Part shown: positions 15,573-61,295 of the stretch, piece by piece
How positions within the stretch are numbered: position 1 is the stretch's first letter
Layout of the letters: each line of letters opens with the position of its first letter
Origin: a virus
Direction: 5' to 3' (one strand)
Length of the DNA stretch: 64,000 bases
Virus record (IMG/VR): IMGVR_UViG_3300042914_002334
Coordinates: 32,001 to 96,000 of that record
The notes under the pieces: model-generated
Databases searched by the model: none
The model's input: the letters and a program-made list of their open reading frames with translations, nothing else
What the model was told of the DNA's origin: nothing
Program-made: the position numbers and the translations under genes

Positions 15573-16109
15573 TCAATTTATCCCCGCTTGTCGTTGTAAA
15601 TTCAAGATGTCCTCATCGGTTTCGTAAACCTTTGATGTTTTTATTCCAGCGATTTCTCTCCACTCGTTCAAATCTTTGTCATTTTCTTTTTTGTAATCTT
15701 GTGAAGTAAGAGAAATATTATTCGCTATGTTTTCTCTTGTTGCCGGAAATTTGTCGCTCTTAATTTTTAGAGTCCAGTCTTCGCCCTTTACGCCAGTTAA
15801 AGTATCAATATCGTCAAGTATTTCCATTATTTTTCTTGGTGAACTTGGTCTGCGATTTAATTCGGCAAAAACATAGTATTTACCACGCTCCACTTCACCT
15901 GGACTAATATCTGCGTCTATGATAAACTCATAGCCACGTTCAAGCCAAGTAACCAAATCTTCACCTGCTTCTTTTGCAGTGACCATAAAACTCAGCGTGA
16001 TGATTTCGCTGTCATCGCCAATTCTTGACTTGAACTCATCTATTCCGAGCGTTGTGATCAGAATGTCTTTTAAGTCAAGATGTTTTAGGCTTTCATTTAA
16101 TTGAATCAT
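15573..16109 (-). CDS. Hypothetical protein, probably head-associated
   Basis: Begins MIQLNES; ends with two xxAGI helix motifs. Confidence 0.6.
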   Translation of the reverse strand: MIQLNESLKHLDLKDILITTLGIDEFKSRIGDDSEIITLSFMVTAKEAGEDLVTWLERGYEFIIDADISPGEVERGKYYVFAELNRRPSSPRKIMEILDDIDTLTGVKGEDWTLKIKSDKFPATRENIANNISLTSQDYKKENDKDLNEWREIAGIKTSKVYETDEDILNLQRQAGIN

Positions 16110-16741
16110 ATCGGTGGTAATCCAGCCAAATCAGGCGGTAATCCGCCCATAGGTCCTCCCATTGGACCGCCCATAGGGCCTCCCATTGGACCGCTCATAC
16201 CCTGTTGCCCCAGTTCTTGATCCTTTAATGACTCAGTATCATAATCCTTTTGATATGCGTCATCCAAGTCTCCAAGATCAATGGTTTGATCTGCGATATC
16301 TACACTACCTTCTCTTATATCTGACATCAACTGCTTTGGAACGCATATGTTGATGAGCCACACCGTTATAGAGATCATTTTTGGATAGTGTGATCCTGGT
16401 TTGAAATCGCTTGCGCTTTTTATTTCAATGGGTATTTTTATTTTTGTTTTCTTGAATGCCACTTTGCATCCAAGTGGTAGTAATCTTTTTGCTCCTCGTG
16501 GATCAGGCATCAGTGATTTTGGCCACATAAAAGTACAAGATACATCGTATCTGTTTACTACTGGACCATCCACTAATTCTCCGAGTTGCCAATTCTTAAA
16601 CGCATAGATGTCTGCTTCATCCAGAACTCTTTCGAAGTCAAGTAAAGTAGACATTGTTCCATCACTGGTGTATATGCCTTTGATATTATTGACAATTTCG
16701 CTCCAATCTGGAGAATCTAAAAAGGTATACTTCTTTGTCAT
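16106..16741 (-). CDS. Hypothetical late protein with GPMG-repeat tail
   Basis: Start moved to ATG 16741, 7 nt after GATAAATA; 12-bp GGPM repeats near 16143-16197. Confidence 0.65.
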   Translation of the reverse strand: MTKKYTFLDSPDWSEIVNNIKGIYTSDGTMSTLLDFERVLDEADIYAFKNWQLGELVDGPVVNRYDVSCTFMWPKSLMPDPRGAKRLLPLGCKVAFKKTKIKIPIEIKSASDFKPGSHYPKMISITVWLINICVPKQLMSDIREGSVDIADQTIDLGDLDDAYQKDYDTESLKDQELGQQGMSGPMGGPMGGPMGGPMGGLPPDLAGLPPI

Positions 16742-16748
16742 GATAGAG

Positions 16749-16772
16749 TATTTATCAAACCTCTGATAAATA
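16749..16772. promoter_or_regulatory. Back-to-back late promoters (GATAAATA on both strands)
   Basis: tatttatc-aaacctct-gataaata between divergent genes; matches the T4 late box TATAAATA. Confidence 0.75.
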
Positions 16773-16797
16773 CTATTAAACAATAGTGAGACAAATC

Positions 16798-17106
16798 ATG
16801 AAGGTCACCGAATTACTAAAACAATTATCTCAGATGATGTCTGATGTTGATACCACCGAAGTAGTTGAGCCAGAAGAGCCACAACCAGAAGTTGGCGTCT
16901 TTATGCCTCCATTACAAGCAGAATTGGAATTATTCAAAAAATCAAATAATTTGGATAATGTTTATGACAACGAATCTTGTGATGAGCCAGTTGATTACAA
17001 AGAAGAATCAGATGCGGCTCCAGAAGATGAACTTGATCGAATGAAAAAAATGGCTGGTATAGAACCAACCATTATAGTGAAAACTTCTAACACTCCAACT
17101 TTCTAA
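16798..17106 (+). CDS. Small acidic protein, probably head-internal
   Basis: MKVTELLKQ start; EDELDRMKKMAGI motif. Confidence 0.65.
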   Translation: MKVTELLKQLSQMMSDVDTTEVVEPEEPQPEVGVFMPPLQAELELFKKSNNLDNVYDNESCDEPVDYKEESDAAPEDELDRMKKMAGIEPTIIVKTSNTPTF

Positions 17107-17107
17107 A

Positions 17108-18955
17108 ATGGGCACACTCCAAAGAATATTCAGTAGCAGAAGTGCTGCCGATGCTAATTCTTATATAGGGCGCGCTGGTCATATTTTTTACGAAGAAAGC
17201 GATACGCCCGGAGTTGCTCCAATTATAAAATATAGCGACGGTATCACACCTGGTGGTATTCCTATTTCTGGAAATTCAGGTGGCAGTGGTAGCGTGAACA
17301 GCATAGAAGTGAGCGGAGGAACTACAGGACTAACAACAGACGGCGGTCCAATAACCTCATCGGGAACGATAACATTAAATGGAGTCTTGAATGTCGCTGC
17401 CGGCGGGACTGGCGCAAACAATCCAGTAACCGCAAGAACTAACTTGGACGCAGCAAGAAGAGGCAATAACAACGACATAACAAGTTTGAGTGGGTTGACA
17501 ACTCCACTATCCGTCGAACAGGGCGGAACTGGAGCGAATTCATTGGCTGGATATCTCAGAGGAAACAATGCAGATTCATTTACTGCAACTACTACCATTC
17601 CATTCAGCGACATTACTGGAGTTGTTCCAGTTAGTCAGGGCGGAACTGGGCAAAGCACGCTTTCTGCTGGTGTTTTAGTAAGTGATGGAACTACAATCAG
17701 CACCACTAATTTTATATCTGGGTCCGTCATTGACGGAAACATAAGCGGAAACTCTCTAAATGTCACCGGCGTAGTAGAAATAAATCACGGGGGAACTGGT
17801 GGCAATACTCCAAGCAGTGCAAGAATCGCGCTTGGAGTAGCAAAGAGTGGAGCCAACGGGGACATAACAAGTTTAAGTGGACTTACTACTCCTCTTAGTA
17901 TTGATCAGGGCGGAACCGGCGCATCAACTTCCTCAGATGCACTATCGGCTTTACTACCAAGTCAGACCGGAAATACAAATAAAGTTTTGATAACAGACGG
18001 AACCAGTGCAAGTTGGGGTAGTTTTTCTCAGAGTAGAGCCGCAAGAGTGTTAGTAGTAGGAATAGACGCGGCAACCATACAAGAATGCATTGATCTTGCA
18101 AGTAATGTAAGCGCCGCTAATGCATATATAGTTCAAATTCCACCAGGAAGATATATAGAGAACTTGACTTTGCGCGGTGGTGTAATGATTCAAGGTATGG
18201 GTAATCAAGCAGACCCAACCAGTGTTGTTATTACTGGGTATCATACATTAAATGGGGCGGCACTGAATGCACTCAGCAACACAGTATCAGTTGCCAATAT
18301 AGTATTTGCGGCTGATACATCACTAAATCCTGTATTCAGTATTAGCGGAACAACGGCAACACAGTTTAATGTTCAAGGATGCTACATTCAGAATACTAAT
18401 ATCAATACCTCTGCACACGCATTTCAGATTGGCACTAATGTATCACTTTATCTTGACAATTGCAACATTCAAATGGTGGCTGGATCAGGAACTCAATTCA
18501 ATATGAGTGGTGGATCAATATATCTAAGAAATGTTAGATCAAATAGCGGTAGCAAAATCATCAACATGTCGGCGCCTGCATATGCAGAACTTACATACTC
18601 TACTTTAAGTTGTGCAGGAACATCCGAGGCAATTACCGTATATGGAAACGGGGCTGCTGAACCATTTCCACTAAGTGGATTAGTCAGTGCTGGGTGGACC
18701 TCAATACAAAATACAGCGTCAAATGGTAACGGAGTAAATCTTGCTGCAAGTGGAGCAAGCATGCTTGCGTATTCTTGTTCGTTTGATGTGTTGGCTGACG
18801 CTTCTAATTATGTAGTGACTGGGGTTGCGGGAACCAGTTTTGTTCAACTAAACAACAATTACGCTAATATTCCCGGTATATTGTCCAGAAACATAAAGAT
18901 TAAAAATACCGTCGCATTGCTAACCCACAGCAGTTCACTGAGTAGCAGTGCTTAA
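17108..18955 (+). CDS. Tail fibre/spike with a C-terminal beta-helix domain
   Basis: GGTGA repeats, then a TIQECID...IPPGRYIENLTL..GVMIQG pectin-lyase-like cap. Confidence 0.75.
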   Translation: MGTLQRIFSSRSAADANSYIGRAGHIFYEESDTPGVAPIIKYSDGITPGGIPISGNSGGSGSVNSIEVSGGTTGLTTDGGPITSSGTITLNGVLNVAAGGTGANNPVTARTNLDAARRGNNNDITSLSGLTTPLSVEQGGTGANSLAGYLRGNNADSFTATTTIPFSDITGVVPVSQGGTGQSTLSAGVLVSDGTTISTTNFISGSVIDGNISGNSLNVTGVVEINHGGTGGNTPSSARIALGVAKSGANGDITSLSGLTTPLSIDQGGTGASTSSDALSALLPSQTGNTNKVLITDGTSASWGSFSQSRAARVLVVGIDAATIQECIDLASNVSAANAYIVQIPPGRYIENLTLRGGVMIQGMGNQADPTSVVITGYHTLNGAALNALSNTVSVANIVFAADTSLNPVFSISGTTATQFNVQGCYIQNTNINTSAHAFQIGTNVSLYLDNCNIQMVAGSGTQFNMSGGSIYLRNVRSNSGSKIINMSAPAYAELTYSTLSCAGTSEAITVYGNGAAEPFPLSGLVSAGWTSIQNTASNGNGVNLAASGASMLAYSCSFDVLADASNYVVTGVAGTSFVQLNNNYANIPGILSRNIKIKNTVALLTHSSSLSSSA

Positions 18956-19086
18956 TCAGCAATTCTACGCACAGAATAATATTTATCAAAATACTTGACG
19001 AAATAAGTGCATCAGTGTCACATATCACCTGAACTTAAATACATTGTCATCGTCACAATGACATTTAACAAAACAGGAGATATACC

Positions 19087-19869
19087 TTGGGAAGAAGACG
19101 AAACAACGCGATGCGTAAGGAACAAGAGCAATTCAGCATGATCAGCAATAAGCAGACAAAAGCATTTTATCAAAAGCATCAAACAAAACAGGAGTCAAAT
19201 ACTATTCCATTTAATGCAACAAAGATAAAGCGTCAAATTGATTTAATTCCAAAAACACGAAATCAAGAAGCATATATATTGGCCCTTACTAATCCCTCAA
19301 CAGATGTAGTAGTGGTTAGTGGGCCTGCCGGAACAGGTAAAACTTATCTGGCCATGTTGGCTGCAATCAAAGCACTAAAAAACAAAGAGTGTGAGCGTAT
19401 AATTCTTAGCAGACCTGCGGTTGGGGTCGATGATGAAAAACACGGATTCTTACCTGGTGACTTAAATCAAAAAATGGAGCCTTGGACTCGTCCACTTCTT
19501 GATGTGTTGCGTGAGTATTACTCAGTGAAAGAAATCGAGTATATGCTTGATGAACAAATCGTAGAAATCGCTCCACTTGCTTTTATGAGAGGTAGAACTT
19601 TTAAGAATAGTTGGATCATTTTAGATGAAAGTCAAAATGCCACACCAAGTCAAATGAAGATGATACTTACAAGAATTGGCGAAAACAGCAAGATAATAGT
19701 GACAGGCGATATTGAGCAAACAGATCGCAAACGCTTGGACAACGGTCTTCTTGATCTTGAAGATCGTCTTAAAAAGCACAATGTCCCTGGATTAGAGATT
19801 TGCAAATTCGATCTAAAGGATGTTCAGCGACACTCTATCATAGAACATGTGATAAAAATGTATAATTAA
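19087..19869 (+). CDS. phoH: PhoH-family ATPase
   Basis: GPAGTGKT, GFLPGDL, FMRGRTF, DESQN, GDIEQTD; AGGAG SD before a TTG start. Confidence 0.95.
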   Translation: MGRRRNNAMRKEQEQFSMISNKQTKAFYQKHQTKQESNTIPFNATKIKRQIDLIPKTRNQEAYILALTNPSTDVVVVSGPAGTGKTYLAMLAAIKALKNKECERIILSRPAVGVDDEKHGFLPGDLNQKMEPWTRPLLDVLREYYSVKEIEYMLDEQIVEIAPLAFMRGRTFKNSWIILDESQNATPSQMKMILTRIGENSKIIVTGDIEQTDRKRLDNGLLDLEDRLKKHNVPGLEICKFDLKDVQRHSIIEHVIKMYN

Positions 19870-19877
19870 ATTGTGAC

Positions 19878-21737: not shown

Positions 21738-21738
21738 A

Positions 21739-28381: not shown

Positions 28382-28711
28382 TTATTTTTTTAGAGTGCTC
28401 TTTGCCATCTTATCAACTAAGTCGGCTTGTTTCTCACCATCTGGTTCTGATTCGACATCATCTGCGCCCTTAAAAACTATATTGTCTCCATCTACATTCG
28501 CAACAATATTGCTTAGTGGGGGATTCTTTATCATTTTAAGAAACAATTCTTTGTCTACATTTAGACCGCGCTCATTTAGAGCGTTGAGAACAACATCCAA
28601 GTTGATTCTGTTTTTGTAACCTGTATCTTCGGAACGATTTTGATATTGACCTACAACTCCCGTGAGAATGGTAGCGTCAACTGATTCAGGCTCAAATTCG
28701 TATAACTTCAT
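28382..28711 (-). CDS. Hypothetical protein, probably head-associated
   Basis: MKLYEF start; coupled to the upstream gene. Confidence 0.6.
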   Translation of the reverse strand: MKLYEFEPESVDATILTGVVGQYQNRSEDTGYKNRINLDVVLNALNERGLNVDKELFLKMIKNPPLSNIVANVDGDNIVFKGADDVESEPDGEKQADLVDKMAKSTLKK

Positions 28712-29427
28712 TATCTGCGCTCGCGTCCGAGTCCGCTCATACGCTGCTTTGGTTCTTCTTCTGGTTCTTCTGGCAACTCTGGCATTTCTCCGCCCATTTC
28801 TGGTTCTTCCATGCCACCCATGTCGTCCATGCCTTCTGGGCCACCGATGTCACCCATGTCGCCCATTTCTCCAGTAGGCATTCCGCCATCACCAGTTACC
28901 GTATCCAACGCACCATTTAGTCCGTCTTTAGCGGTTTTTAGAGCCTCTTGCAAAGAAGACAATGCTTCTCCCGCAGCACTATTAAATTGCTCGGCTTCGT
29001 TTGCTCCAAATTCGCCAGAATTTTTCATACTTTCTACTACAGCATTCAATTCTTCTACATTCATCTTACTGACTTGTTCTATCATTTTTTGAATGTCGTC
29101 GATCATACTCTTTGCAGCAAGTATTACTTGTGATTTTTGAACTTCTTCGTTTTCTACAACGATTCGAGTTTGTGAGCGTAATTCTTGCAGATGCCCAGAA
29201 AGTGCTTGTTCCATCATTAGTAATTTCATATACGCAGGATTTTTGTGACTGCGATAATTACCAGTTGATGTTTTTGATTCTATAATCAAACCTCTAACTT
29301 TTGTTAGCATGCTTGAAGTTTTTTTGATGTTCATGTTGCTCAAAGATAAGTCGTAATCAAAAGATTCTTTTAGCACTTTAGATGCCAACTTGCTCTTTTT
29401 GTTTTCTTGAAGATCGGTTAAGTTCAT
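28711..29427 (-). CDS. Helical prohead-core-like protein
   Basis: LQE, LKE and VVE sites; acidic Met/Gly tail. Confidence 0.55.
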   Translation of the reverse strand: MNLTDLQENKKSKLASKVLKESFDYDLSLSNMNIKKTSSMLTKVRGLIIESKTSTGNYRSHKNPAYMKLLMMEQALSGHLQELRSQTRIVVENEEVQKSQVILAAKSMIDDIQKMIEQVSKMNVEELNAVVESMKNSGEFGANEAEQFNSAAGEALSSLQEALKTAKDGLNGALDTVTGDGGMPTGEMGDMGDIGGPEGMDDMGGMEEPEMGGEMPELPEEPEEEPKQRMSGLGRERR

Positions 29428-30844: not shown

Positions 30845-31624
30845 TTATATTTGGTGTTCTATTCCGTAATACTTATAGTATCCCGCGTTCAGATATTTGA
30901 TAGTATCAATATCAGAAACTTGAAGTGGCTTAGTGGCGTCGGTAACATCAATCCACTTATCCTCAGTGAAGTTGAACTCGAATGTTCTATTTTGAGTTAT
31001 CAGTGTCGGTTTGTCTGGAATCGGTTTGCCTACTCCAGAACCAGTTGTTGGAATAATGCTTCCGTTGGTTGTCTTGTATGCATTCCAGGATGCCTCTGTT
31101 GGCTCAGAGTTAAGTGCCTTTGCAGATGGAGGGGCCGGCGCTGGCTCAGGACTAGTTGCTCGTTCTTCATTGTATATTGCCCAATATTGATTAGCCAACA
31201 TGTCAGATAATTGACGAGTTAGTCTTTTAGTTGTTCTGTATTGACTACCAAATCGTGTTATAACAGAGTCTAATTCAGTTTCTTGTTCTGGACTGAGTGT
31301 TGCAACTACATTTGCTTCCTTTTTTAGCATATTCAGAATAAATGATTTTACTGCAAACTCTACCGTTCCAGCAGTAAACGCTTCTTTAAGAATTTTTGCT
31401 TCTAATATTGACTCAAAGTGATGATAGTCGGTGAATTCTGTTAGATTTGGTTTTGATCTTAAATATCTATCCAACTCAGCGAAGAACTTGTCATAAAACA
31501 TTTTCTCTGCCATTTCAGAATCTCTTCTTTGAAATGCCAATCGTTGCTGCATGCCACCTAATACGCCGCTGCGTTTAATGGCATCAACAAAACTGCCTTC
31601 ATTGAGAAATTCTTTGCTCTTCAT
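30845..31624 (-). CDS. Probable head-internal protein
   Basis: MKSKEFLNEG leader; ILEAKILKEA sites. Confidence 0.55.
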   Translation of the reverse strand: MKSKEFLNEGSFVDAIKRSGVLGGMQQRLAFQRRDSEMAEKMFYDKFFAELDRYLRSKPNLTEFTDYHHFESILEAKILKEAFTAGTVEFAVKSFILNMLKKEANVVATLSPEQETELDSVITRFGSQYRTTKRLTRQLSDMLANQYWAIYNEERATSPEPAPAPPSAKALNSEPTEASWNAYKTTNGSIIPTTGSGVGKPIPDKPTLITQNRTFEFNFTEDKWIDVTDATKPLQVSDIDTIKYLNAGYYKYYGIEHQI

Positions 31625-39535: not shown

Positions 39536-39754
39536 TTATTTGGCACTGGACTTTTTTAAAATGACCCAATCATTGAATGGCGTTATTTGTTTGCCATTAT
39601 CAAGTAGCAATTTGCTACCTTCGACTGCGGTTACTGTTCGCGTCTCGCCAGTTTTTTTGCTTTTGATAACATCGCCGCGCATTATTCCGCGACCATATGG
39701 ATACTTGCTTTCGCTTCCACCATAACTCTCATTCAATAGTTCTGTTATCTTCAT
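39536..39754 (-). CDS. Small probable head-internal protein
   Basis: MKITELLNES leader; ATG lies 5 nt after ATAAATA. Confidence 0.6.
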   Translation of the reverse strand: MKITELLNESYGGSESKYPYGRGIMRGDVIKSKKTGETRTVTAVEGSKLLLDNGKQITPFNDWVILKKSSAK

Positions 39755-48902: not shown

Positions 48903-50909
48903 TTATGTTTTGTGTCCCATCCACTTTTTTAATTTCTTAAGTTGGATGTCGTATTCCTCAGAGTCATCTGGCTCTGAAGTTTGTTGGTTGGCCTGACTTA
49001 ATGGACTAAGGCTTCCGCCCCCAAAGTAATCTGGATTATCTGCCTCGTTTAGTCCTCCAAGAACTCGATTCAAAATTGCTTTAATCTTTTTTGGTGCCTT
49101 GGCCAATGGATACAAGTCGCTGATAATATCTGTTCTGATGTCATCGTCAGCCGATGTATACATATTTCGTATTTTGCTGGCGCTATCAATAACTTGTCCT
49201 GCAATCTCAAAATCGATTTTTGGAACAATATAAATGTATCCGTGTTTGCTCATTGATTGATCGGAGTCATCTGAATATTGCTGAAAGTAGGAAGGACTTC
49301 CATCCTTTTTTGGAGCAAAATTAAATCTATCGCTGTCCTTTTCACTGACTGCAAATACCAATATAGTATTTTCTGGATCGTAGTTACTTGTAATCTCGTT
49401 TGCCTTATATGGACTCTTTACTTGCACAAATCGGTCTTTTGGAACACCGCTTTGATTGGCAAGAAATTTTTTATCATCAAAACCAAATGGTCGTTCAGTT
49501 TTAGTGTCAGTGGCCGCCACGAACACTTCTCCACTTGGAAATTTATGTGCTAGATGATCAAATACACTTGCGTGTCCTAAGTGAAATGGATGAAATCCAC
49601 CTGGGTAAATGACTAAAACTTTCTTATCGTCAATATTTTCTTTAAGAGTCGGTTGCGCTGATTGTGGTCGTTGTTTGGCTAATCTTGCTTGTGCGTTTTG
49701 TCTGCTAAAACCAAGACGATCTACTATTTTTATTCCGCCACTTACGAATCCTTCTTGACTAGCAGTCATTTCACCATCAGACGTAGTAGATCGTAAATAG
49801 CCCTGTAATGGACTTTGTTGTGCCGCTTTTTCTAGCGATGGAATCAAACTCATTTTGTATCTATAAACTTTTATCCAATTATCCCATATTTTGCTAATAA
49901 TGCTGCGATTTTTTTCGTAGTAGTCAATTAAGGCTTCATATTTTCTACGTGATATTGGAAGCTTTGGTTTTGCCAATTCCGAATCCAATCTCAATTTGTA
50001 AGCAGTATCAAATCCAGAATCTAGTGTTTTTAGATCAAGTTTCCCAACATTGATTAATCCATTTACGTAAGTAGTAAATCTGTTGGCAAAATTAGTAGCA
50101 GATTCGGGCGCGCCTGTAATAAACTTTTTAATCGCTGAGTCATCCGATATAGTTGATTCTGCGACAGATTTTAGTTGTTGATTTACGTTTATAGTTGGAG
50201 TCACTGGCATACGAACAGGCAACAGTGCTACGTTTCCACGACGACGTAATTTTCCTAATCCTGATAGCCAAGTGATATTACTTTCTGTGGTTGCCGCATT
50301 TGGTGGCAAGTATCTATGTATAGCTATTCCAGCAATTTTATCACGTAAATATTCTCCAAGATCGCTATCAACCGGAACACGATACATTAGTCCTTCTGGG
50401 TTAGCTTGAAACTGATAAACCCGATTTGAATTTATATTTTGTACGGTCAGTGGCTTGCTAGGATAGAATATTAAGTCTCCCATATACCAACCAGTATTAC
50501 CACTATAAGAGGCTTCCAATGATTTCCAAAGTGATGCGACTGTTCTAGACAAATCTGTTCTTGCCTTTTCTCCACGAGCCGCTTCTCGTTGTGCGAATTC
50601 TTCTGGGCTATAAACGGCACGATTTTCGCGATTGGAGCTATTAAACATATGCTTGTCTAGTATAGCAAATCTTCCATCTGACCCACTACCGAATACTAGT
50701 GCTGGCCATCCATCTATTTTTATAGTTACCGCTTGTGGACGCTCTATAGTCGCATTTAGTCCAGCTATTGCTTGAGATAGCGGAGTATATACTTGACCTT
50801 TCCCAGCTTCTAGTCCGCCCCAGATCACCATGTCTTCTGGGTGATCCATATGTCCAGCGGCCTCTAATAGAAGCGTTTTATTTTCTAATATAAGTTCTCT
50901 GGACAACAT
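48903..50909 (-). CDS. Fusion of a KxDG (ligase-motif) domain and an HxGH nucleotidyltransferase
   Basis: HMDHPED..TIKIDGWPALVFG...QEGFV..IKIVDR, then YPGGFHPFHLGH...SASKIR. Confidence 0.7.
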   Translation of the reverse strand: MLSRELILENKTLLLEAAGHMDHPEDMVIWGGLEAGKGQVYTPLSQAIAGLNATIERPQAVTIKIDGWPALVFGSGSDGRFAILDKHMFNSSNRENRAVYSPEEFAQREAARGEKARTDLSRTVASLWKSLEASYSGNTGWYMGDLIFYPSKPLTVQNINSNRVYQFQANPEGLMYRVPVDSDLGEYLRDKIAGIAIHRYLPPNAATTESNITWLSGLGKLRRRGNVALLPVRMPVTPTINVNQQLKSVAESTISDDSAIKKFITGAPESATNFANRFTTYVNGLINVGKLDLKTLDSGFDTAYKLRLDSELAKPKLPISRRKYEALIDYYEKNRSIISKIWDNWIKVYRYKMSLIPSLEKAAQQSPLQGYLRSTTSDGEMTASQEGFVSGGIKIVDRLGFSRQNAQARLAKQRPQSAQPTLKENIDDKKVLVIYPGGFHPFHLGHASVFDHLAHKFPSGEVFVAATDTKTERPFGFDDKKFLANQSGVPKDRFVQVKSPYKANEITSNYDPENTILVFAVSEKDSDRFNFAPKKDGSPSYFQQYSDDSDQSMSKHGYIYIVPKIDFEIAGQVIDSASKIRNMYTSADDDIRTDIISDLYPLAKAPKKIKAILNRVLGGLNEADNPDYFGGGSLSPLSQANQQTSEPDDSEEYDIQLKKLKKWMGHKT

Positions 50910-50910: not shown

Positions 50911-52638
50911 TTATTTAATCCACTTTGCTACCTGTTCTCCAACAATCGTGTCTACCATTTTATCAATTGATTCTCTAAAAAGATCGATAGGGGGTAGTGT
51001 CGATGGCTCATCCGGTTCTAAATGCAACTTTCGAAATTCACGATTAGGTGCGCCACGAGTGTTTAATGGTTCTGGGTTTTTATCACCTTTAGATTTGTCC
51101 AAAAATGCTAAAGTGTTAAGAAGTCTATTTAATTCTAATATTGTGTGTTTAAGAATTATTTTAGAAAACGATCTGTCAGTAGTCAACTCATTTAAACTTT
51201 TAACGCTGTGATTCGACGATAATCGAACTAATAAATGCAACATAATCGCCTCGGTCGTGTCTGCCAACCGAGTATATTTTTTATCACTTTTTATTTTAAC
51301 TAAATCATTTTCCAAGAATCGTAGCACATTAGTGAACAGACGTATAATTGCATCTGCATGCTTATTTTCGTCTTCGTCCGTAGAATCAAGAAGAGAGTTT
51401 AGAGTTAGTACACTCTTGATGTATCGTTCTACAGAGGCTCTGGGAAGCCCAGTTGTGCTCCAAATTTCGTATGGATCAGCCATCTCATTTAACTGATATT
51501 TTTTGTTTTCTTTAAGTTCACTCATTTCTGGCTCTTTTTCAGTTTGAATTTTGCCTGCACCAAATCGTTTTAAGATATTGCGTGCTTTATACTCTGCATC
51601 TTGTTCTTGATCGGGAGTAAAACTAGGCTTAACGTATGGTTCATCTTTTTTTGTTTTCATAGACGAAATTATTGAGATTTTGTCGTTCAGCGCATCAAGT
51701 TTATTGGAAACTGTATCAAAATTTACAGTGGTCGAGTTGACGAAATCGGGAAATTCTTCGTCAGTTACACTCAGAATTTTTGGCAAATCTTTGTTTAAAA
51801 AGTTTTTAATCAAAGTGCTTGCTTGTTTACTTCTCTTACCAACCGCTTTGCGATATTTTTGTGTTCTGTCAGAAGATATTGCCTGTTTAACTTTATCTTC
51901 TATTTCTTTTCCTATTTCTTTTTCTCGTTGCTCTAACTCTTGTTGTTTCTTTTCTATCTGAGCAATTTTTCCACTCACATCTGCTTTTTGTGTTTCTATG
52001 TCTTTTTGCTGTGATGTTACTTTTGCAGCAACATCGCCGAGTTGTTTTAACTTTTCTTTTTCTAATGATTGTTCACCAGACATTGTTTTAATCTGACTTA
52101 CGAGATTAGTAAACTCTTGTGGGTTTATTTTTTCGATATTTTTCTTAGCGTATTCCAAATCTTGCTTTAATTGATTATATTGCTCATCGTTCATTCCTGG
52201 CTTATTTTTTAACTCTTCTACCTGAGCCAGTGCTTTTTCTACCTCTGTTGCATTTACTTTTCTTTGCTCAACGTCAGTTGATATTTTTCCACTTAGAGTT
52301 TTTAATCTGTTTATTTCAGCGTCAGATTGCTCTCCTGATTGAGCAACCGTTTCTAACTCTTGCTGCATTTTTGTTAGATTAGAGGTTAGTTTCGCGTTTT
52401 CTCTTCGCTGAGCGTTTATAACGGCGTTTTGCTCTAAATCTCTCGTGTCAAACTGCTTTAACTTATCGTCCAGATATAATCCAAGAGCCTGATCTTTTGT
52501 TAGTTCTGGATATGATCTTGTGGCCTGATAAACGATATCACGATCACGAGAAATAGACTTTTCTATTCCAGTTTTTGGATTTACAGCAGCCTCGTATATG
52601 TCATTTGCCCAACTTTCAAAATCTCTAAGTTGTTTCAT
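50911..52638 (-). CDS. Coiled-coil protein, probably head-internal
   Basis: Long heptad region; IYE, LKE and LNE sites. Confidence 0.55.
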   Translation of the reverse strand: MKQLRDFESWANDIYEAAVNPKTGIEKSISRDRDIVYQATRSYPELTKDQALGLYLDDKLKQFDTRDLEQNAVINAQRRENAKLTSNLTKMQQELETVAQSGEQSDAEINRLKTLSGKISTDVEQRKVNATEVEKALAQVEELKNKPGMNDEQYNQLKQDLEYAKKNIEKINPQEFTNLVSQIKTMSGEQSLEKEKLKQLGDVAAKVTSQQKDIETQKADVSGKIAQIEKKQQELEQREKEIGKEIEDKVKQAISSDRTQKYRKAVGKRSKQASTLIKNFLNKDLPKILSVTDEEFPDFVNSTTVNFDTVSNKLDALNDKISIISSMKTKKDEPYVKPSFTPDQEQDAEYKARNILKRFGAGKIQTEKEPEMSELKENKKYQLNEMADPYEIWSTTGLPRASVERYIKSVLTLNSLLDSTDEDENKHADAIIRLFTNVLRFLENDLVKIKSDKKYTRLADTTEAIMLHLLVRLSSNHSVKSLNELTTDRSFSKIILKHTILELNRLLNTLAFLDKSKGDKNPEPLNTRGAPNREFRKLHLEPDEPSTLPPIDLFRESIDKMVDTIVGEQVAKWIK

Positions 52639-52639: not shown

Positions 52640-54064
52640 TTACGCTCCGAATTTTAACCCGCTCAATTTTCTAATTCTTGCCAATTCGTCTTCTTTCAAA
52701 TCTAAAGGAGGAGCAATTCCCATCTTAGAAGATGCTGGTTCCTGACCAGATTTTGAGCCCATTGATTGCGACTTCTGTGGTGATTGTTTCATTGGACTTG
52801 GCTCTGGGACAGGATTAGATGGCTCAGGCTCATTTTTCACTTCATCTTCTGGCTCAGAGAAATTTTCCTTTTCTTGCAATCTGTCAAGCACATTCTTGAA
52901 TTCCGAACGATCATGATGCTCTTCAATCCATCCGATAATAATAGGCTTAGAATCCAAATCTGGGTTTCCAGAAGCCTTTCTTAATCTATCAAACAACTCA
53001 TCGTCATCAATATATTGTTTGATTTGTTCTATTGAATTAATTCCATCTGGTCCCACTGGCAATTCTTCACTCGAAGATAAAAGTTCCACTAATTCTTCTA
53101 CTTGTGCATCATTTGACAAATCTTCTTCTAATGATGCGTCTTCTGTAATTGCAGTTGGCTTAAGACGACTAAGAACGGAGAACGCTGATTCTATTCTTGG
53201 GTCCAACTTTTGTTGAGTAAACATCTCAGTGAAATTAGTTATCTCATTCGACTCTTCCATTAGAGTTGGAGTCCAATTTTCAAAATAATTTCTGAATCCG
53301 CGACTGCTGCGAAGTTTTTTCATTGTTTCTCTCAGTCGAATGTATTCACTTGCCGCTTCGTGAATCATCATATTCACGCTTTCATTGAATTGTCCGTTGC
53401 GGGTTGCTCTAATAAATCCGCCTAATTTTTTAATGTCTTCACACATTTGCGCGATGTGTTTACCACGCTCGTCGTATGGGTTGCCACCTTCTGCGATCAA
53501 TCTTGCAAAAGCATATCCTTCACTTGGTTTCTTAGTTGGTAAAACAAATCTTTCACCAAACTGATTTTCAACAAATATTTGATCCACATGTCTAAATCGT
53601 TGATCGGTTTCTTCCATTTGTTTATTGTGTTTAATAACCATCTTTACTGATTCGGGGGTAGAGTCGCTATAACTTTTTGTTTTTGTTCCAAAGTATCCTT
53701 CATTGATACCCTTTCTATACTCTCTTCTCTCCATCCAGTCATTAAAATTATCAAGTGCGTCTAACTTGAACGATAGTGCCTTTCTGGTTGCCCAATTACT
53801 CATGTCTTCAACAAAATCTGTCCATTGAGGAGTGACCTCTTTGATAGCGTTCTTGCTAAAGAATATAATCAATTCTTTGACATCATTGATTGCCGCAATA
53901 AAGGTTCCGTGTTTTACTTTTTTAGTCTTGAATGTGAATTTAAAAGCAGTAGCGTTTTCTGCATTCACTGAAGATTTCAAGTCTTTGATTCCAATTGGAT
54001 CAAAGTTCTTTATTTGTAGCTCATTTTTGAGTTCAACGTTTAGTGAGTCAATCGTCTTAGGCAT
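52640..54064 (-). CDS. Probable head-internal / virion protein
   Basis: Late promoter; INE, FNE, ITE and LKE sites; ends EDELARIRKLSGL. Confidence 0.6.
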   Translation of the reverse strand: MPKTIDSLNVELKNELQIKNFDPIGIKDLKSSVNAENATAFKFTFKTKKVKHGTFIAAINDVKELIIFFSKNAIKEVTPQWTDFVEDMSNWATRKALSFKLDALDNFNDWMERREYRKGINEGYFGTKTKSYSDSTPESVKMVIKHNKQMEETDQRFRHVDQIFVENQFGERFVLPTKKPSEGYAFARLIAEGGNPYDERGKHIAQMCEDIKKLGGFIRATRNGQFNESVNMMIHEAASEYIRLRETMKKLRSSRGFRNYFENWTPTLMEESNEITNFTEMFTQQKLDPRIESAFSVLSRLKPTAITEDASLEEDLSNDAQVEELVELLSSSEELPVGPDGINSIEQIKQYIDDDELFDRLRKASGNPDLDSKPIIIGWIEEHHDRSEFKNVLDRLQEKENFSEPEDEVKNEPEPSNPVPEPSPMKQSPQKSQSMGSKSGQEPASSKMGIAPPLDLKEDELARIRKLSGLKFGA

Positions 54065-54114: not shown

Positions 54115-54843
54115 TTACGATGGTCCCATACGACCATCAAACAACGCTCTGACATCGCCTACGGTAAAATATCCGCGCTTTTTGATTTCTGGGCGTTCTC
54201 TAAAAACAGGATTTTGATCCCAAACACTACCGCGATTTAACTTATCAGCAGAAATGCTCTTAAACAACGGAATATTATATTGATTTTTTGCTCCAAGAAC
54301 GAAACTGTCTGGTTTGTTATGAGTTATCACCGCTGGCATAAATGTTGACAGATAGATGTCGCTTGCTTTTGATCCAGGTGGTAGTTTTTTAACTTTGTAG
54401 TATTTTAAAACCCAATCGAGTTGTTCAACCGCAGACATTTTTCTTAATGCTTCTGTTGTTGTTCCAAGATATTGAGCCGTTTTTGGCATAAACTGAATCA
54501 GTCCAGTTGCGCCAATTGCGTTTGTTTTACTTGGATCAAAAGTTCCTTTTGTTTCAAACCATATTACTTTAAACAAGTCTTGCGGATTTACTTGTAATGC
54601 GTTAGCGACTTGCTTTAATTTTGCTTGAAATTTTTCACTACGAGCATGTTCTTGCTCTGGATAATTTTTTTGAAGTCGTTCTACTTCTTGCGCGGTGCTG
54701 TATTTCGAGGGGTCTGATTGTTGATTTTGATAATGTTTATATGCAAGACCACCTATGCCCATACCAGCAGCAATTGCCGCGGCAGTAGCATTTTGTTTCC
54801 ATCCTTCATCTACTTTAGATTCTACTATTTCTTTAACATGCAT
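54115..54843 (-). CDS. Lytic transglycosylase (SLT-like)
   Basis: IWFETKGTFDP...GATGLIQFMPKTA lysozyme-fold motifs. Confidence 0.8.
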   Translation of the reverse strand: MHVKEIVESKVDEGWKQNATAAAIAAGMGIGGLAYKHYQNQQSDPSKYSTAQEVERLQKNYPEQEHARSEKFQAKLKQVANALQVNPQDLFKVIWFETKGTFDPSKTNAIGATGLIQFMPKTAQYLGTTTEALRKMSAVEQLDWVLKYYKVKKLPPGSKASDIYLSTFMPAVITHNKPDSFVLGAKNQYNIPLFKSISADKLNRGSVWDQNPVFRERPEIKKRGYFTVGDVRALFDGRMGPS

Positions 54844-54850
54844 CTATTAT

Positions 54851-56410
54851 TTATGATATAACCATAATAAACGGCATCGGTTCAATCTCTTCGCTATGAT
54901 CTCTAATATGTGCATCAAGATCAACATTATAATTTTGCAAATGTTGCAGCATTCTAACTATTAGAACCAGTGCCATTACAAGATCGTCTGTTTCTCCAAG
55001 TTTGGCGGCATAACTACCCCCACTACTAACAAATGTTTTTAACTCACTTATCAATGGTTTACTTGATACTTTTAATTTTTTGCTTTCTATTAGATTTTTT
55101 AATTTGCTACAGGCACTTAGTTTAGATTTGTTTGTGGTATTAAAACCTCTACGATATCGTCTTGCTGATCCAACATTTTTTGGTTCGCTCAACATAGTCC
55201 CTGGTATGTTTTCTTCTCCATACTCGGCTAATGATATGAGTGCTGCTTCTCCAATAGTATTGTTTTCTAAACTATAATATAAATCATTTGGTTGTTTTGT
55301 ATGCTCAACGATTTCTTTATTGATCGTCGCAAGCAGTTTAATTTGTTCTGGAATAGGCGTTCTATTGTGGGTCCACTCAGCAACTTGCTCAGTGGTATCT
55401 GCTTCAAACACTTGTATGGCTGCTGGATCGCCTCCTGTTCCCAAACTCGGGTCTAATGATACTACATATATGTGATTTTTGGACGGCTTCTTAAACCAAC
55501 GAACTTGTCCCGTTTTATAAATTGGTTCTTTAGATTCTAAATTAGATAAGACTATACTATCTATTAAAGTTTCCTCGTCTATCAAGAATTCACAATTGTG
55601 TTCTCGACGAAATCGTTCATCGCCTATCTTACTGCGTTCTTCTTCTGCCCACTTTTCATCACGATCTGGGTGCTGATTCCATAATGCCATATATGGACTG
55701 AATCCATTTTTGCCTAAATTAGTTGGATTACCGTACGCGTCAACTTTTTTGTTGGCTTCTTTCCATATCTGAGCAAATTGATCCTCGTCGCTATTTGGGG
55801 TGCTGGTAATAATACACTTACCGCCTGTTGCTAACGTAGGAGATATAGAAGTCCAGAATTCTTTTGCAATAGTTGGTCTTACGAATGCGAACTCGTCAAG
55901 ATACAGCAGTGACAATGACATGCCTCGTCCAGTTTTTTCGGTAGTGGCACGAGCAACAATACGACTTTTGTTCTCAAAGTCGATATTTCCCTGATTGTAA
56001 CTTTCTACGCCTGGCTTTAACCACATCGGGCACATTTCATATCCGTATCTAATACGCTGCATGATTTCTTGAGCACCGCTATATTGGTGTGCTGCTATCA
56101 ATATGGTCTTGTCATAGTTAAACATAGCAAACCACAACAAGTATCCTGCGGCGCTGGTGGTTTTTCCTAACTGACGCCCGAGTAACGATACAGAGAATCG
56201 ATTTTCGTGATAATTTTTAATTAGATCGACTTGATAATCATACGGATCGTATAATACTTGTCCCCGGGTTGGGTGTTGAATGTAGAAGTAATTTCTCATC
56301 CAATATTCGTATCCAGTAACTGGATCCGCACATTTCAGAACTTCTACTATTTGATCTGGCGTAAGACTTATTACTGCGCCTTTAGAACGAATAAAATTAT
56401 TATCGCTCAT
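54851..56410 (-). CDS. terL: Terminase large subunit (gp17-like)
   Basis: YDYQ, GRQLGKTT, LDEFAFV, ITSTPN, DPSLG, DDLVMAL. Start ATG 56410. Confidence 0.95.
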   Translation of the reverse strand: MSDNNFIRSKGAVISLTPDQIVEVLKCADPVTGYEYWMRNYFYIQHPTRGQVLYDPYDYQVDLIKNYHENRFSVSLLGRQLGKTTSAAGYLLWFAMFNYDKTILIAAHQYSGAQEIMQRIRYGYEMCPMWLKPGVESYNQGNIDFENKSRIVARATTEKTGRGMSLSLLYLDEFAFVRPTIAKEFWTSISPTLATGGKCIITSTPNSDEDQFAQIWKEANKKVDAYGNPTNLGKNGFSPYMALWNQHPDRDEKWAEEERSKIGDERFRREHNCEFLIDEETLIDSIVLSNLESKEPIYKTGQVRWFKKPSKNHIYVVSLDPSLGTGGDPAAIQVFEADTTEQVAEWTHNRTPIPEQIKLLATINKEIVEHTKQPNDLYYSLENNTIGEAALISLAEYGEENIPGTMLSEPKNVGSARRYRRGFNTTNKSKLSACSKLKNLIESKKLKVSSKPLISELKTFVSSGGSYAAKLGETDDLVMALVLIVRMLQHLQNYNVDLDAHIRDHSEEIEPMPFIMVIS

Positions 56411-56604
56411 ATTGGCTTTTCCCCAGTAAGATATGGCTTTGAAAACCACAAACGAAACCATTCATCAGTTCCGGGTCTGATGTTATTCTCTCTCATTAGT
56501 CGTGCCTTTTCTGCGGCAGTAATACTGATGTTGCTACCTTCAGTGGGATTGCTATGTTTAGTTGTTATTCCAGCAATTACGCGCCATCTGTCTAATTCAT
56601 CCAT
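56407..56604 (-). CDS. Small protein coupled to terL
   Basis: ATGA overlap; MDELDRWRVIAGI...PGTDEWFRLWF. Confidence 0.7.
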   Translation of the reverse strand: MDELDRWRVIAGITTKHSNPTEGSNISITAAEKARLMRENNIRPGTDEWFRLWFSKPYLTGEKPI

Positions 56605-56634
56605 ATTGTATTTATTGACAATATAACAAATTAC

Positions 56635-57015
56635 TTAAAAACCCTTAAATGGTTTTACTGGACTGACATTTTTGACATGCTTTGGCTCTACACTTTTCTT
56701 ACTACTTGTTTCTATTTTCTTAGTAAGACCCATTGTCTTCATTGCCGCGTCTATGTATCCTTCTAATTCTATGCCGTATCCAATTACAATTTCATTTTCG
56801 CCCCATTGTGATTCAGCAGAAATAGAAGAAACTCCATCTTTCTTTCTTTGCTCTTCTCCACGATGACCGGCGACTAACACTCCAAATCTGTATTGACGAT
56901 ATGCATCTTGATTTTTTAATTCTGGAATTGCATACGAATGAGGAAGCGTATCGTAAATATCTGGGTGCGCTTTCTGCTCGTGCTTAGATTCATTGATAAA
57001 TTCTCTGGCTCTCAT
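56635..57015 (-). CDS. Probable head-internal protein
   Basis: MRAREFINES leader. Confidence 0.6.
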   Translation of the reverse strand: MRAREFINESKHEQKAHPDIYDTLPHSYAIPELKNQDAYRQYRFGVLVAGHRGEEQRKKDGVSSISAESQWGENEIVIGYGIELEGYIDAAMKTMGLTKKIETSSKKSVEPKHVKNVSPVKPFKGF

Positions 57016-57022
57016 AAGAATC

Positions 57023-57277: not shown

Positions 57278-57311
57278 AAATTATCCAATACATACTATTT
57301 ATCACGTACAT

Positions 57312-57372
57312 AAAAAATAGGTTATCATATTTCTACGATAACCTATTAGTCTTCCCATCCCGATTGTGAAGT
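57312..57372 (-). ncRNA. Candidate late small RNA (about 60 nt)
   Basis: TATAAATA at 57378-57385, then about 25 nt, an 11-bp hairpin and a U-tract; no credible ORF. Confidence 0.4.
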
Positions 57373-57460
57373 ATAAGTATTTATACTTTTTGACCAAAAT
57401 AGTTGATTTAACATCACGCATTGTGTATCCTGATATATATTATAGAAAGCGAATACGTCC

Positions 57461-58918
57461 ATGCGTGATCAAATACTTGAAATTATTAATACTCATCCAA
57501 AACACTATAGTTTATTGATTAAGAAAAACACAGCGTTACACAATTGGATAAAAGATAACTCGCAGATTGAGTGCGATCATTTTCCAACTATGATTTACAG
57601 TGCTGTATACGGAGTTAATCCAATATGTAGTAATAATAATCTAAAAAAGCTAACAAGATGGTCAACAGGGCTTGTTAACTGCGGAGCGGCAAATGTCTGT
57701 GCGTGTACTAAATCTGATATCTCTAAAAATGTAAGCGCAACTAAACAAAATTACAGTGAGCATCGCAAAACAGAAATAGAAGACAAAAGAAAAAGCACAA
57801 TGCTTCTCAATTACGGGGTTGAATATAACAGTCAGCGTGAATCGGTAAAGACAATATTAAAAACATCAAAATTAAAAGAACATCAATTTAACACGTTGAT
57901 TGACCGTGATTGGTTAGAGCGTGAGTATGTAGTAAATAAACGTACTGCCGTTGATATTTCTAATGAAATAGGCTGTCACGATAGTGCGGTTAGACGATAT
58001 GTAGCTCTACACGGATTTGATATTAGAAAATATAGTCAACGAAGTACATATGAATCAATGATTTGCCGTTGGCTAGACAATAACAATATACAGTATGAGA
58101 TTTGTAATAGAACTATTCTGAATGGAGCAGAAATAGACATTTACATACCAGCACACAAGTTAGCTATTGAAGTTAACGGTCTTTTATATCACAGCTATAA
58201 TCCAAATTCGTTTCATATTCTAAGACAAAAAAATAAAAAGGAAGAGCGAACAAGACACCTTAATAAAACTTTGTTAGCAAATGAAAAATCTGTTCATCTA
58301 TTACATCTAAATGATAATCAAATAAAAAATAAATGGGATGTTGTAACCAACATACTATCAAGTAAATTAAAACTACAGAATAAAATATGGGCCAGACAAT
58401 GCGAAATTGTAGAAGTTAATTCTGCTGAGCAACGAGAATTTTTTAATCGTGTTCATATTCAAGGATGGGTAGCATCAAAAAAAGCATACGGGTTATATTA
58501 TAACAGCAGATTAGTTCAATGTATTAGCGTTGGAAATAATCGGTATCGTTCCAATGAGTTAGAGATTTTAAGATTCGCCAGTGAAATGAATACTACTGTA
58601 GTTGGCGGATTGAGTAGATTACTAAAACATATTCAATCAATATTCTCAGATATCACTATAACAACTTACTGTGATAGAGATATCAGTAACGGTAACGGGT
58701 ATATCAGTGCTGGATTTAAAATTATTGAGTATACTAAACCTGGATATTTTTGGACTGATGGCACAGATATTATTAGTAGATACAAAACGCAAAAAACTCA
58801 ATTAAGTAAATGGTTGTCGCAATACAACTCTAATGAGAGTGAAAGTGTAAATATGTTTCGTGCTGGGTATCTGAGATATTGGAATACTGGTAATGTAGTA
58901 TTACGCTATGAGAAATAA
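57461..58918 (+). mobile_element. Free-standing homing endonuclease (Hef/Vsr-like PD-(D/E)XK)
   Basis: YGVEYNSQ, an HTH, STYE, EIDIYIPAHKLAIEVNGLLYH. AT-rich, opposite strand, next to the capsid gene. Confidence 0.75.
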
Positions 58919-58943
58919 AAAGGGAACCGAAGTTCCCTTTTTT
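58917..58943. terminator. Bidirectional terminator after the major capsid gene
   Basis: aaaagggaac-cgaa-gttccctttt (C-UUCG-G loop on the minus strand). Confidence 0.88.
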
Positions 58944-58963
58944 GTTTGAACATAATTCCAATA

Positions 58964-60160
58964 TTATTGAAAAGTGACATTTTGGATTGCGATTTCACCA
59001 ACGTAGTCAGCGGCGTTACCGAAACTACTTGCGGTGTTGGTAAGCTCCACGTAACCATAACGAGTCATGAAGGACACGACTGGTTCGAATGTTGCTGGAT
59101 CCAGAACAACACCACTACTCATCAATGGAATGTATGGGCAGTAGAATGCTGCGGCATCAGTTTCTGAAGAACCCTTGTAACCAACCAATACTGGTGTGGT
59201 GTCGCCAGCGTAGCTGTCAACAAACACGCGCATTGCGTTGTTTAGTGTTCCAACCAACTTGGTGTTGGTAGGTGCTTCGAAAGTTCCTTCTGTTGTGCGA
59301 GCAAATGCACTTGTGGTAGCACTTTGCAGAACAGTTAGAGCCTGACTACTTACAACTGCCCAGTTACCAGCACCACGACGAGTGCGCTGAGCAATCAAGT
59401 TAGCAACACGATTGATTAGAACTGCCAATGCGGCGTGCTCATCACCAACGAATGTAGCGGTTCCACTTACTGTTGCTTGGTTGTAAGTGAATTCTGTAGC
59501 AGCAAGACTGCGTAGTGACAAGAGAATTTCTTGATCAATTTCAGCAGTAATTTCTTGTGCCAAAGCGGCCATGATTTCAGCCTCAACATCGATACCGTGT
59601 TGTGACTGGGCATCTTGAGCGGCTTCAAATGTCCAACGAGCTTGCAATTTGCGGCTCTTGGCTTCTACGGCTTGACGTAGAATTTGGACGCTGATCTGCT
59701 TACCACCATTGCCTTCAAGAGAGGCAGTATCAGCAGCAGTGTATGCACTTGTAGATGCAGCACCACTTGCAGTGCGTGAGTAAGCCTGAGCAATCTTGAA
59801 TGGGCTCAATGCTTCTTCGCCAGCAACAACGCTTGTTCCAGCGGCGCTGTTGTCGGTTAGACTGTTGGCATAACGAACACGCAGAGTGTGAATTTGTCCA
59901 ACTGGTCCTGTCATTGGCTGAACGCCTACCAATTCGTTAGCAATAACGGTTGGCATAACACGACGGATAACTGGAAGAATAACACGATTTAGAGTTGCGA
60001 TGTTACCTGCAACGGTTGTTCCAGCAGAACTTTCTGCCAGTAACTGCTTGCGAGTGTTTTCGAAAATAACACCCATCATTGAACGACGAGTTCCTTGGAG
60101 ACCTTCCAGGAGGGCTTCCTTTGTTTCGCCCCAACGGCTCTCTAGTAATACTTTTGACAT
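58964..60160 (-). CDS. Major capsid protein (gp23-like)
   Basis: GVQPMTGPVGQI, AKSRKLQARWT.E.AQD, EIDQEI, FYCPYIPL, TRYG. Confidence 0.96.
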   Translation of the reverse strand: MSKVLLESRWGETKEALLEGLQGTRRSMMGVIFENTRKQLLAESSAGTTVAGNIATLNRVILPVIRRVMPTVIANELVGVQPMTGPVGQIHTLRVRYANSLTDNSAAGTSVVAGEEALSPFKIAQAYSRTASGAASTSAYTAADTASLEGNGGKQISVQILRQAVEAKSRKLQARWTFEAAQDAQSQHGIDVEAEIMAALAQEITAEIDQEILLSLRSLAATEFTYNQATVSGTATFVGDEHAALAVLINRVANLIAQRTRRGAGNWAVVSSQALTVLQSATTSAFARTTEGTFEAPTNTKLVGTLNNAMRVFVDSYAGDTTPVLVGYKGSSETDAAAFYCPYIPLMSSGVVLDPATFEPVVSFMTRYGYVELTNTASSFGNAADYVGEIAIQNVTFQ

Positions 60161-60188
60161 TTTTTTAATCTCCTTGTTTAATGTCTAA

Positions 60189-61295
60189 TTAAAGCCCTGC
60201 CAGACGCTTGAAAGCGATCAGATTTTCTTGGTCTTCACTCTCAACTTGATGTTTTTTGGCAGTTTTATCACCAGTCACAACGCTTTCAGCAATAATTTTC
60301 TTCTTTTCAGAAGGCGCATTCTTGCTTGTTCCGTTGTTTAATACTGCTGGTAGATACTTATCGAAAGCGACTTTTAGCTTTGGTGTTTGCACGCTTTCTA
60401 GTAAATTACGCATTACTTCAGATTTTTCTTCGTTCAAAGTTCCTAACAATTCTGTCATCATCTTTTCACGAAGATTGGATTCTTTAATAACACGCACTTC
60501 ACGCTCTTTTGATTCAATCAATTTTTTAGATGATTGAATTTGTTTAACAGATTCTGAAATTAGTTTGTCTTTCTTTGCAAGGTCTGCTTGTAATTTTTTT
60601 ACTTCTGCGTTCTCATTTAAATGAGTCACGCTAAATTCAGCAGCAAATGCTTCGAATAATTTTCGTCCAAACGCGTTTTCTCGTGCGGACTTAATGTCTT
60701 CTGTCAACTGACTAATTTCACCCTTTAACTGCTTGGTTACTCCTGCATTTATCTTCTTGGCAGATTCTGCGATGAATTTTTGCTTGAGTGTTTCTAATTG
60801 CTGTTTAGCTTCTGCAACTAATTTAACTTTAGCCTCAACTACCGCTCTCTTATCCTGCTCGAATTCTTTGATTTCACGAGACAATGCCTTTACGACAAAT
60901 TGTTCCAGTTTTTGGCGATTTTCCATTTGTGTTTTGCGATCACCACGCAATTCACTTATTTCTTCTGCCAATTTTGAAACCATAAAATCATTGAACTTTT
61001 TAGCAGATTCGAGCATCTTTGACTGGACTCTAACTCTGTCCTCGTTCAATGATTTACGCTCTTCACGAAACTCGTGAATTTCTGCTTGTAGTCCAGATGT
61101 AACCATCTTGTCAAGGGCTTCAACCATGATGTTTTTGTCATGTTCATACTTATTAGCGTATTCGACTCTGAGTTCTGCTGCGATTTCTTGTTTTGCCTCA
61201 TTTAATTTGGCTTCCCAAGCTTCATTGATCATCTTAGCAGTGTCGTCGGCTATAACGCCACTTTCAAGTAATGTTTTAATGAATTCGGTCTTCAT
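60189..61295 (-). CDS. Prohead core scaffold (gp22-like)
   Basis: Coiled coil between protease and capsid genes; KLFEAF; many LxE sites. Confidence 0.85.
   Translation of the reverse strand: MKTEFIKTLLESGVIADDTAKMINEAWEAKLNEAKQEIAAELRVEYANKYEHDKNIMVEALDKMVTSGLQAEIHEFREERKSLNEDRVRVQSKMLESAKKFNDFMVSKLAEEISELRGDRKTQMENRQKLEQFVVKALSREIKEFEQDKRAVVEAKVKLVAEAKQQLETLKQKFIAESAKKINAGVTKQLKGEISQLTEDIKSARENAFGRKLFEAFAAEFSVTHLNENAEVKKLQADLAKKDKLISESVKQIQSSKKLIESKEREVRVIKESNLREKMMTELLGTLNEEKSEVMRNLLESVQTPKLKVAFDKYLPAVLNNGTSKNAPSEKKKIIAESVVTGDKTAKKHQVESEDQENLIAFKRLAGL

Follow-up and report, generated by a model that had tools for sequence, protein, structure and literature searches.

How proteins are localised to the core of a T4-type head, and which contact joins that core to the shell, are both still unknown according to a 2023 review (PMC9958956). 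The question is raised by a stretch of 64,000 nucleotides (hereafter the window), bases 32001-96000 of the single 141-kb contig of an uncultured T4-like phage (IMG/VR record IMGVR_UViG_3300042914_002334), in which the head scaffold protein ends in a short helical tail and several other proteins carry a peptide of similar pattern, mostly near their C-terminal ends. A first-pass annotation of the window had proposed that this peptide is a portable address tag which docks diverse cargo on the inner wall of the capsid. Here we ask whether the peptides exceed chance, whether they are equivalent to the scaffold tail, and what they might bind. At the level of profiles, the tags and the scaffold tail fall into a single class of motif. 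Judging from the sequences and from analogy with solved systems, we also lean towards the view that the tag docks its carriers in the prohead at the site used by the scaffold's own tail.

The tag is an amphipathic peptide of about 11-13 residues, with an acidic start, a hydrophobic residue at every third position, two or three basic residues, and a cap consisting of a small residue, glycine, and a hydrophobic residue. Every clear peptide listed in the first-pass annotation was confirmed at its position (Table 1). A seven-residue core pattern (hydrophobic, K/R, x, L/I/M, A/S, G, I/L/M) was scanned against the 118 proteins (45,350 residues) of the 141-kb genome, with shuffled and reversed sequences as nulls. 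It matches five times, compared to a mean of 0.35 in shuffled sequences and none in reversed ones (Poisson probability 3e-5), and four of the five matches lie at most 25 residues from a C-terminal end (binomial probability 2e-4), so that the suggested enrichment at termini is borne out. Five of the six copies of the tag are found in C-terminal regions, the sole N-terminal copy being that of the 65-residue protein. Leave-one-out profiles assign 21-26 bits to the tags of the 474-, 106-, and 65-residue proteins (0.000 windows expected per proteome) and 15 bits to the first copy in the 178-residue protein (0.11 expected); the second copy of that protein obtains 3.6 bits, which is not significant on window data alone. 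Codon usage varies among the copies, with 12-25 of 39 bases identical, and they are therefore not the product of a recent DNA duplication.

A small residue followed by glycine and a hydrophobic residue is a generic helix cap. The peptides could thus represent a common way of ending a helix, amphipathic and capped by glycine, that has arisen repeatedly and serves no shared partner, for example in oligomerisation. Weak matches do exceed shuffles in the real proteome (17 versus 2.4 at 7.9 bits), and a look-alike is found internally in phage PA5oct, inside a folded domain of gp278. However, a common helix end explains neither the 10- to 20-fold enrichment of the full seven-residue core nor its absence from reversed sequences.

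Nor does it explain how the tag is placed and retained. The family of the 474-residue protein comprises at least 160 metagenomic members, and AlphaFold2 predicts for this protein two confident domains, a disordered linker (residues 403-457), and a helix (residues 458-468) that coincides with the tag. Among 120 listed homologues, on which the tag analysis was done, the C-terminal tag could be anchored in 108, with the main residue class conserved in 61-90% at each tag position. Numbered relative to the glycine, the consensus has L at -8, R at -6, I/L at -5, K/R at -4 and -3, L at -2, and S at -1, with L or I following the glycine and an acidic stretch preceding the tag; the hydrophobic positions of the position-specific logo are -8, -5, -2, and +1. 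The linkers of these 120 members are unalignable while the tag is retained. Both this retention and the position of tags behind disordered linkers are left unaccounted for if helix ends of this kind simply recur. A fold search with the model of the 474-residue protein against the PDB gave no match (best E 0.05), and searches of solved structures by sequence returned neither a match nor a solved structure of a relative.

The other carriers were compared with three whole related contigs, G001, G004, and G005 (189 kb), and in orthologues of every carrier the tags persist while the linkers diverge. The tag of the 106-residue protein is kept in the G001 orthologue (L084), and the orthologues of the 178-residue protein in all three contigs terminate in a tag, whereas its homologues in jumbo phages (GAP32_330 and gp188 of PA5oct) have a folded C-terminal domain in place of the tags. 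Homologues of the 65-residue protein in G004 and G005 comprise 102-118 residues, carry the tag at residues 29-40, and share its C-terminal end; a tblastn search with this protein against cultured phages gave no match. The acidic or proline-rich linkers described in the first-pass annotation are present, as seen in the disordered segment and helix of the 474-residue protein. Its description of a portable tag is upheld: a peptide of about 11-13 residues is attached by flexible linkers to the ends of proteins that are otherwise unrelated.

The scaffold tail itself is strongly conserved. Its last six residues are identical in 80 of 80 homologues from viral contigs (56-77% identity), while the 10-15 linker residues in front of them vary freely. 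A related tail, consisting of an acidic start, hydrophobic residues at every third position, the small-Gly-hydrophobic cap, and then basic residues, ends the scaffolds of the cultured jumbo phages PA5oct, Atu_ph07, 121Q, RaK2, GAP32, and SCTP-2, although these six scaffolds have only 29-39% overall identity to the one studied here. The equivalence of tail and tags becomes apparent from a profile trained solely on the C-terminal tags of the 474-residue family, with the window's own protein left out. In this genome, the scaffold tail ranks fourth among approximately 45,000 windows, at the exact C-terminal end; in GAP32, the scaffold tail is the top match in the whole proteome of the 359-kb genome. 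In G005, a probe made from the contig's own scaffold tail retrieves two peptides above the shuffle null, one of which is the C-terminal end of a 1182-residue amidoligase-domain protein, as well as three further C-terminal ends just below it; among the genomes compared, reuse of the tail gives its strongest signal in G005. Such near-identity to the scaffold tail of the same genome is again unexplained by a recurring helix end, and we regard that explanation as quite unlikely. On the strength of the profiles we assign tags and tail to one motif class, and the patterns of retention support the notion that both are conserved under selection. A hidden Markov model built from the near-identical scaffold tails alone was too narrow, and did not lift the carriers above shuffles. 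The other carriers are absent from the loci around the 80 relative scaffolds because gene order differs there. No such tail is found in gp22, gp21, or gp67 of T4; gp68 of T4 (gene 68; L089, locus 3024-3449) ends in a basic stretch followed by A-L-G-L-S, a loose likeness from which we conclude nothing.

The tag is also spread over the related genomes. The core has four, five, and seven matches in G001, G004, and G005, respectively, as opposed to 0.4-0.6 expected, and these are mostly at C-terminal ends; the reversed proteomes of the four related genomes, including the present one, yield 0-1 matches. Some of the carriers in the relatives are orthologues of those in the window, while others are unrelated proteins, namely the 1182-residue amidoligase-domain protein, an 819-residue protein with two internal copies, and proteins of 1050 and 373 residues. 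In PA5oct, the tail is found on the scaffold and on gp249, and a looser form occurs twice on gp281, an acidic protein whose gene lies immediately upstream of that for the terminase, matching the position of the 65-residue carrier.

Table 1. Scaffold tail, tags, carriers, and head genes, with coordinates in the window.
Feature	Coordinates	Strand	Remarks
Scaffold tail	60192-60230	-	Extreme C-terminal end; amphipathic helix ending in K-R-L-A-G-L at the stop codon
Tag of 474-residue protein	52655-52693	-	4 residues from the end
Tag of 106-residue protein	17023-17061	+	14 residues from the end
Tag of 65-residue protein	56566-56604	-	Residues 1-13
Two tags of 178-residue protein	15642-15680 and 15579-15617	-	C-terminal region
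474-residue carrier	52640-54064	-	phrog_13484, 'virion structural protein' family
106-residue acidic carrier	16786-17106	+	
65-residue carrier	56407-56604	-	Just upstream of the large terminase gene
178-residue carrier	15573-16109	-	phrog_13138, 'virion structural protein' family
668-residue DUF6267 and cytidylyltransferase-like protein	48903-50909	-	Not a C-terminal tag member
Major capsid protein, gp23-like	58964-60160	-	~65% identity to capsid proteins of the gp23 type in PA5oct, 121Q-like coliphages, and similar jumbo phages
Head scaffold, 368 residues, coiled coil	60189-61295	-	phrog_10922; flanked by the genes for the gp21-like protease and gp23-like major capsid protein
Prohead protease, T4 gp21 type	61417-62058	-	Peptidase_S77
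Portal gene	63332-65095		Part of the T4-type head-gene order
Large terminase gene	54851-56461		

If the tag is an address in the prohead, its carriers should be late or virion-associated proteins, and several lines of evidence support such an association. Two of them, the 474- and 178-residue proteins, have matches in PHROG families with the annotation 'virion structural protein'. The PA5oct record holds notes of detection by electrospray-ionisation tandem mass spectrometry (ESI-MS/MS) for gp278, which is the homologue of the 474-residue protein, and for the tag carriers gp249 and gp281. A de novo word search for enriched upstream 8-mers gave as its top result a word with the core A-T-A-A-A-T-A, which we take to resemble the T4 late promoter. 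The 8-mer G-A-T-A-A-A-T-A occurs 19 times in the genome, is found at most 80 nucleotides upstream of the start of 15 genes, most of them structural, and is likely to be a late promoter related to that of T4. It precedes fibre, portal, and other structural genes as well as three carriers, among them the 474-residue protein and the 106-residue protein, where it lies 21 nucleotides upstream. The identified replication proteins, on the other hand, comprise a clamp loader, an exonuclease, a DnaB-type helicase, a primase, a UvsW-type helicase, UvsX, and SSB, and the genome-wide scan found the core in none of them, which speaks against a motif equally frequent in replication proteins.

The gene neighbourhood of one carrier suggests a different kind of recognition. 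The 178-residue protein (phrog_13138) is encoded in a block together with a PhoH-like gene, phrog_12928 (likewise labelled 'virion structural'), and a ClpA-like ATPase of 759 residues (window 12012-19869), which is conserved with PA5oct, where it also has a DnaJ-like gene. Here, a holin-like open reading frame (ORF) lies within the block. C-terminal degrons are short and hydrophobic, and the tag might accordingly be a signal recognised by a chaperone or AAA+ unfoldase. Such a degron sits at the very terminus, but several tags are not at the extreme end, one is N-terminal, and relatives have internal copies. Furthermore, the PA5oct protein of the ATPase block lacks the tag, the other carriers are not encoded near the ATPase, and a degron on the scaffold, which the prohead protease removes in T4-type phages, would be without obvious purpose. 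We consider this explanation highly improbable.

What, then, might the tag bind? A solved precedent is provided by phage 80-alpha, whose scaffold binds the capsid protein through a C-terminal segment of 16 residues that comprises an amphipathic helix, 11 residues long, and a hook (PMC5644958). This tail lies against the N-arm of the capsid protein, and CpmB of SaPI1 employs an almost identical tail at the same site (PMC5644958). The two systems are alike in that a helix of approximately 11 residues with a short hook or cap forms the conserved, extreme C-terminal end of the scaffold, and in that the tail is copied by another, unrelated protein. They differ in that CpmB is a size-redirecting scaffold of a satellite, with binding demonstrated by cryo-EM and genetics, whereas the mimics in the present genome are diverse proteins of the phage itself, which have no sequence relationship to the 80-alpha tail, and for which docking is proposed by analogy. 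Alternatively, the tag could be a prohead address that binds another component of the core, either the scaffold by helix bundling, the protease, or the portal, in the way of the capsid-targeting sequence (CTS) of T4. The CTS directs proteins into the core, and the way in which core proteins reach their place has yet to be explained (PMC9958956). Also in favour of this alternative, one carrier as well as its PA5oct counterpart gp281 adjoin the terminase gene. Against docking elsewhere in the core, the solved precedents, such as 80-alpha, show C-terminal scaffold tails touching the capsid protein. In addition, the tail is nearly unchanged among phages whose capsid proteins are ~65% identical but whose scaffolds are only 30-39% identical, which fits a slowly evolving partner. 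We regard another core component as a less likely receptor, and the capsid protein as the most likely candidate by analogy.

In the model that we favour, the tag is a docking helix some 11 residues long that functionally imitates the C-terminal tail of the scaffold. The tail would hold a partner inside the prohead, and analogy with P22 and 80-alpha points to the major capsid protein, at its inner face or its N-terminal arm, as the most likely one. Late proteins bearing the helix on a flexible acidic or proline-rich linker would be drawn into the prohead together with the scaffold and, we infer, be packaged into the head. Later, the gp21-type protease may cut the cargo free at a hydrophobic-x-Glu site just before the tag. 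Such a site is found 9-14 residues before the glycine in 85% of the 474-residue family, and release of this kind is plausible.

A number of observations weigh against this model. Within the window alone, scaffold tail and tags are only weakly linked: the tail obtains 7.9 bits, where 2.4 matches are expected, its similarity to the other tags is not significant, and a BLOSUM probe made from it stays within the shuffle null. The earlier claim that the tags resemble the scaffold tail thus holds as membership of the same class, by way of profiles from relatives, which alone make it convincing, while the likeness inside the window is modest. Some tags are not terminal: in two carriers the distance to the end is 14 and 23 residues, respectively, and internal copies occur in relatives. 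GAP32 and RaK2 keep the scaffold tail, and proteome scans of these phages show no clear reuse of it. Enzymes with no relation to the virion are also on the PA5oct mass-spectrometry list, which makes detection by this means weak evidence that a protein is packaged. Finally, when carriers from all genomes are considered, no more than about half have a candidate cut site in front of the tag, and a hydrophobic-x-Glu site is expected fairly often by chance in an acidic linker.

The T4 CTS is a close parallel in a T4-type phage. On IPII and IPIII it is N-terminal, has approximately 10 residues, and is removed at an L/I-x-E site (PMC3012670, PMC9958956); it is said to target the scaffolding core (PMC9958956). 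In common with the tag, it is a short portable helix on unrelated proteins of a T4-type phage with a gp21-type protease, and it loads foreign proteins. Unlike the CTS, the tag is found mainly in C-terminal regions, is similar to the tail of the scaffold itself, and is only suspected of being removed. It is not an N-terminal leader of some 10 residues, and even its sole N-terminal copy is internal in the G004 and G005 homologues.

Separately from the tag, the genome contains a second, N-terminal motif (Met, a basic residue, two or three residues, Glu/Asp, two hydrophobic residues, x, Glu), which is present in five proteins compared to 0.24 expected. Those in the window include 56635-57015, 48903-50909, 39536-39754, and 30845-31624. 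The motif is found in 5-11 proteins per related contig, and also in gp333 of PA5oct, encoded next to the portal. The lysozyme-like protein 54115-54843 has a version that is one residue shorter and falls outside the pattern count. From its sequence, this motif looks like a T4 CTS with an I/L-x-E cut site.

Two more distant systems share parts of the architecture. In herpesviruses, the scaffold and the protease share a C-terminal capsid-binding tail, which is released by the maturation protease and is encoded by nested in-frame genes. The parallel lies in a C-terminal tail common to more than one protein, which in herpesviruses binds the major capsid protein, but there the sharing results from the nested genes rather than from a portable peptide on unrelated genes. 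In encapsulins, a short C-terminal peptide following a flexible linker loads cargo into a shell of the HK97 fold. The earlier comparison of the tag with encapsulin targeting peptides holds for this architecture but not for sequence, as there is no similarity between them and no known protein family matched the carriers in this comparison. Moreover, encapsulins have no scaffold, protease, or DNA, whereas the shell here is that of a phage, complete with a scaffold, a protease, a portal, and a terminase. A literature search found no description of a scaffold-like tail of this kind. The portable tag of these T4-related phages, which resembles the scaffold tail and is mostly C-terminal, adds a variant to the known devices for capsid targeting and scaffold mimicry.

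A more general scheme, which we put forward tentatively and hold to be somewhat short of probable, is that a cargo-loading code operates throughout a large T4-related clade, from contigs of ~140 kb to PA5oct-type jumbo phages. In this code, the last dozen residues of the scaffold, placed on a flexible linker, would cause a protein to be co-assembled via the docking site of the scaffold and released by the gp21-type protease. If so, a phage could swap in enzymes or other effectors for delivery with its DNA, and a concrete point of contact between the core and the shell of a T4-type head would have been named for the first time. An invariant scaffold tail copied by other proteins is a specific, mutable peptide for studying that contact. 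Provided that the tag works as proposed, it could serve at the C-terminal end in place of the T4 CTS when proteins of choice are to be loaded into phage heads, and would help to predict which unannotated proteins of uncultured large phages are carried in the virion.

Two further proteins were considered as members and rejected. The first-pass annotation had listed the end of the 668-residue protein (48903-50909) as a loose case, but an orthologue with 92% identity keeps the basic helix without the small-Gly-hydrophobic ending, and the tail is absent among the profile matches listed down to ~8 bits. The 238-residue protein 28711-29427 was discarded on the grounds that another C-terminal ending is conserved in its orthologues. 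Look-alikes of the tag also lie inside proteins, at residue 108 of the protein encoded at 50911-52638 (18.9 bits), where it is kept in the G001 orthologue, and at residue 355 of the 474-residue protein (~10 bits), where it is only partly kept in orthologues.

The surrounding genes follow the T4 head-gene order of portal, two small proteins, gp21-type protease, scaffold, and capsid protein, of which the order protease, scaffold, and capsid protein is common to T4, PA5oct, 121Q, RaK2, and GAP32. The N-terminal 43-residue segment of the capsid protein is nearly invariant and ends in a conserved L-x-E site, probably the counterpart of the T4 gp23 maturation cut, as judged by its sequence. Directly after the capsid gene, on the opposite strand, lies an ORF of 485 residues (57461-58918, + strand). 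As PA5oct has a gene for a Hef-like homing endonuclease at the equivalent position, this ORF is probably a homing endonuclease insertion.

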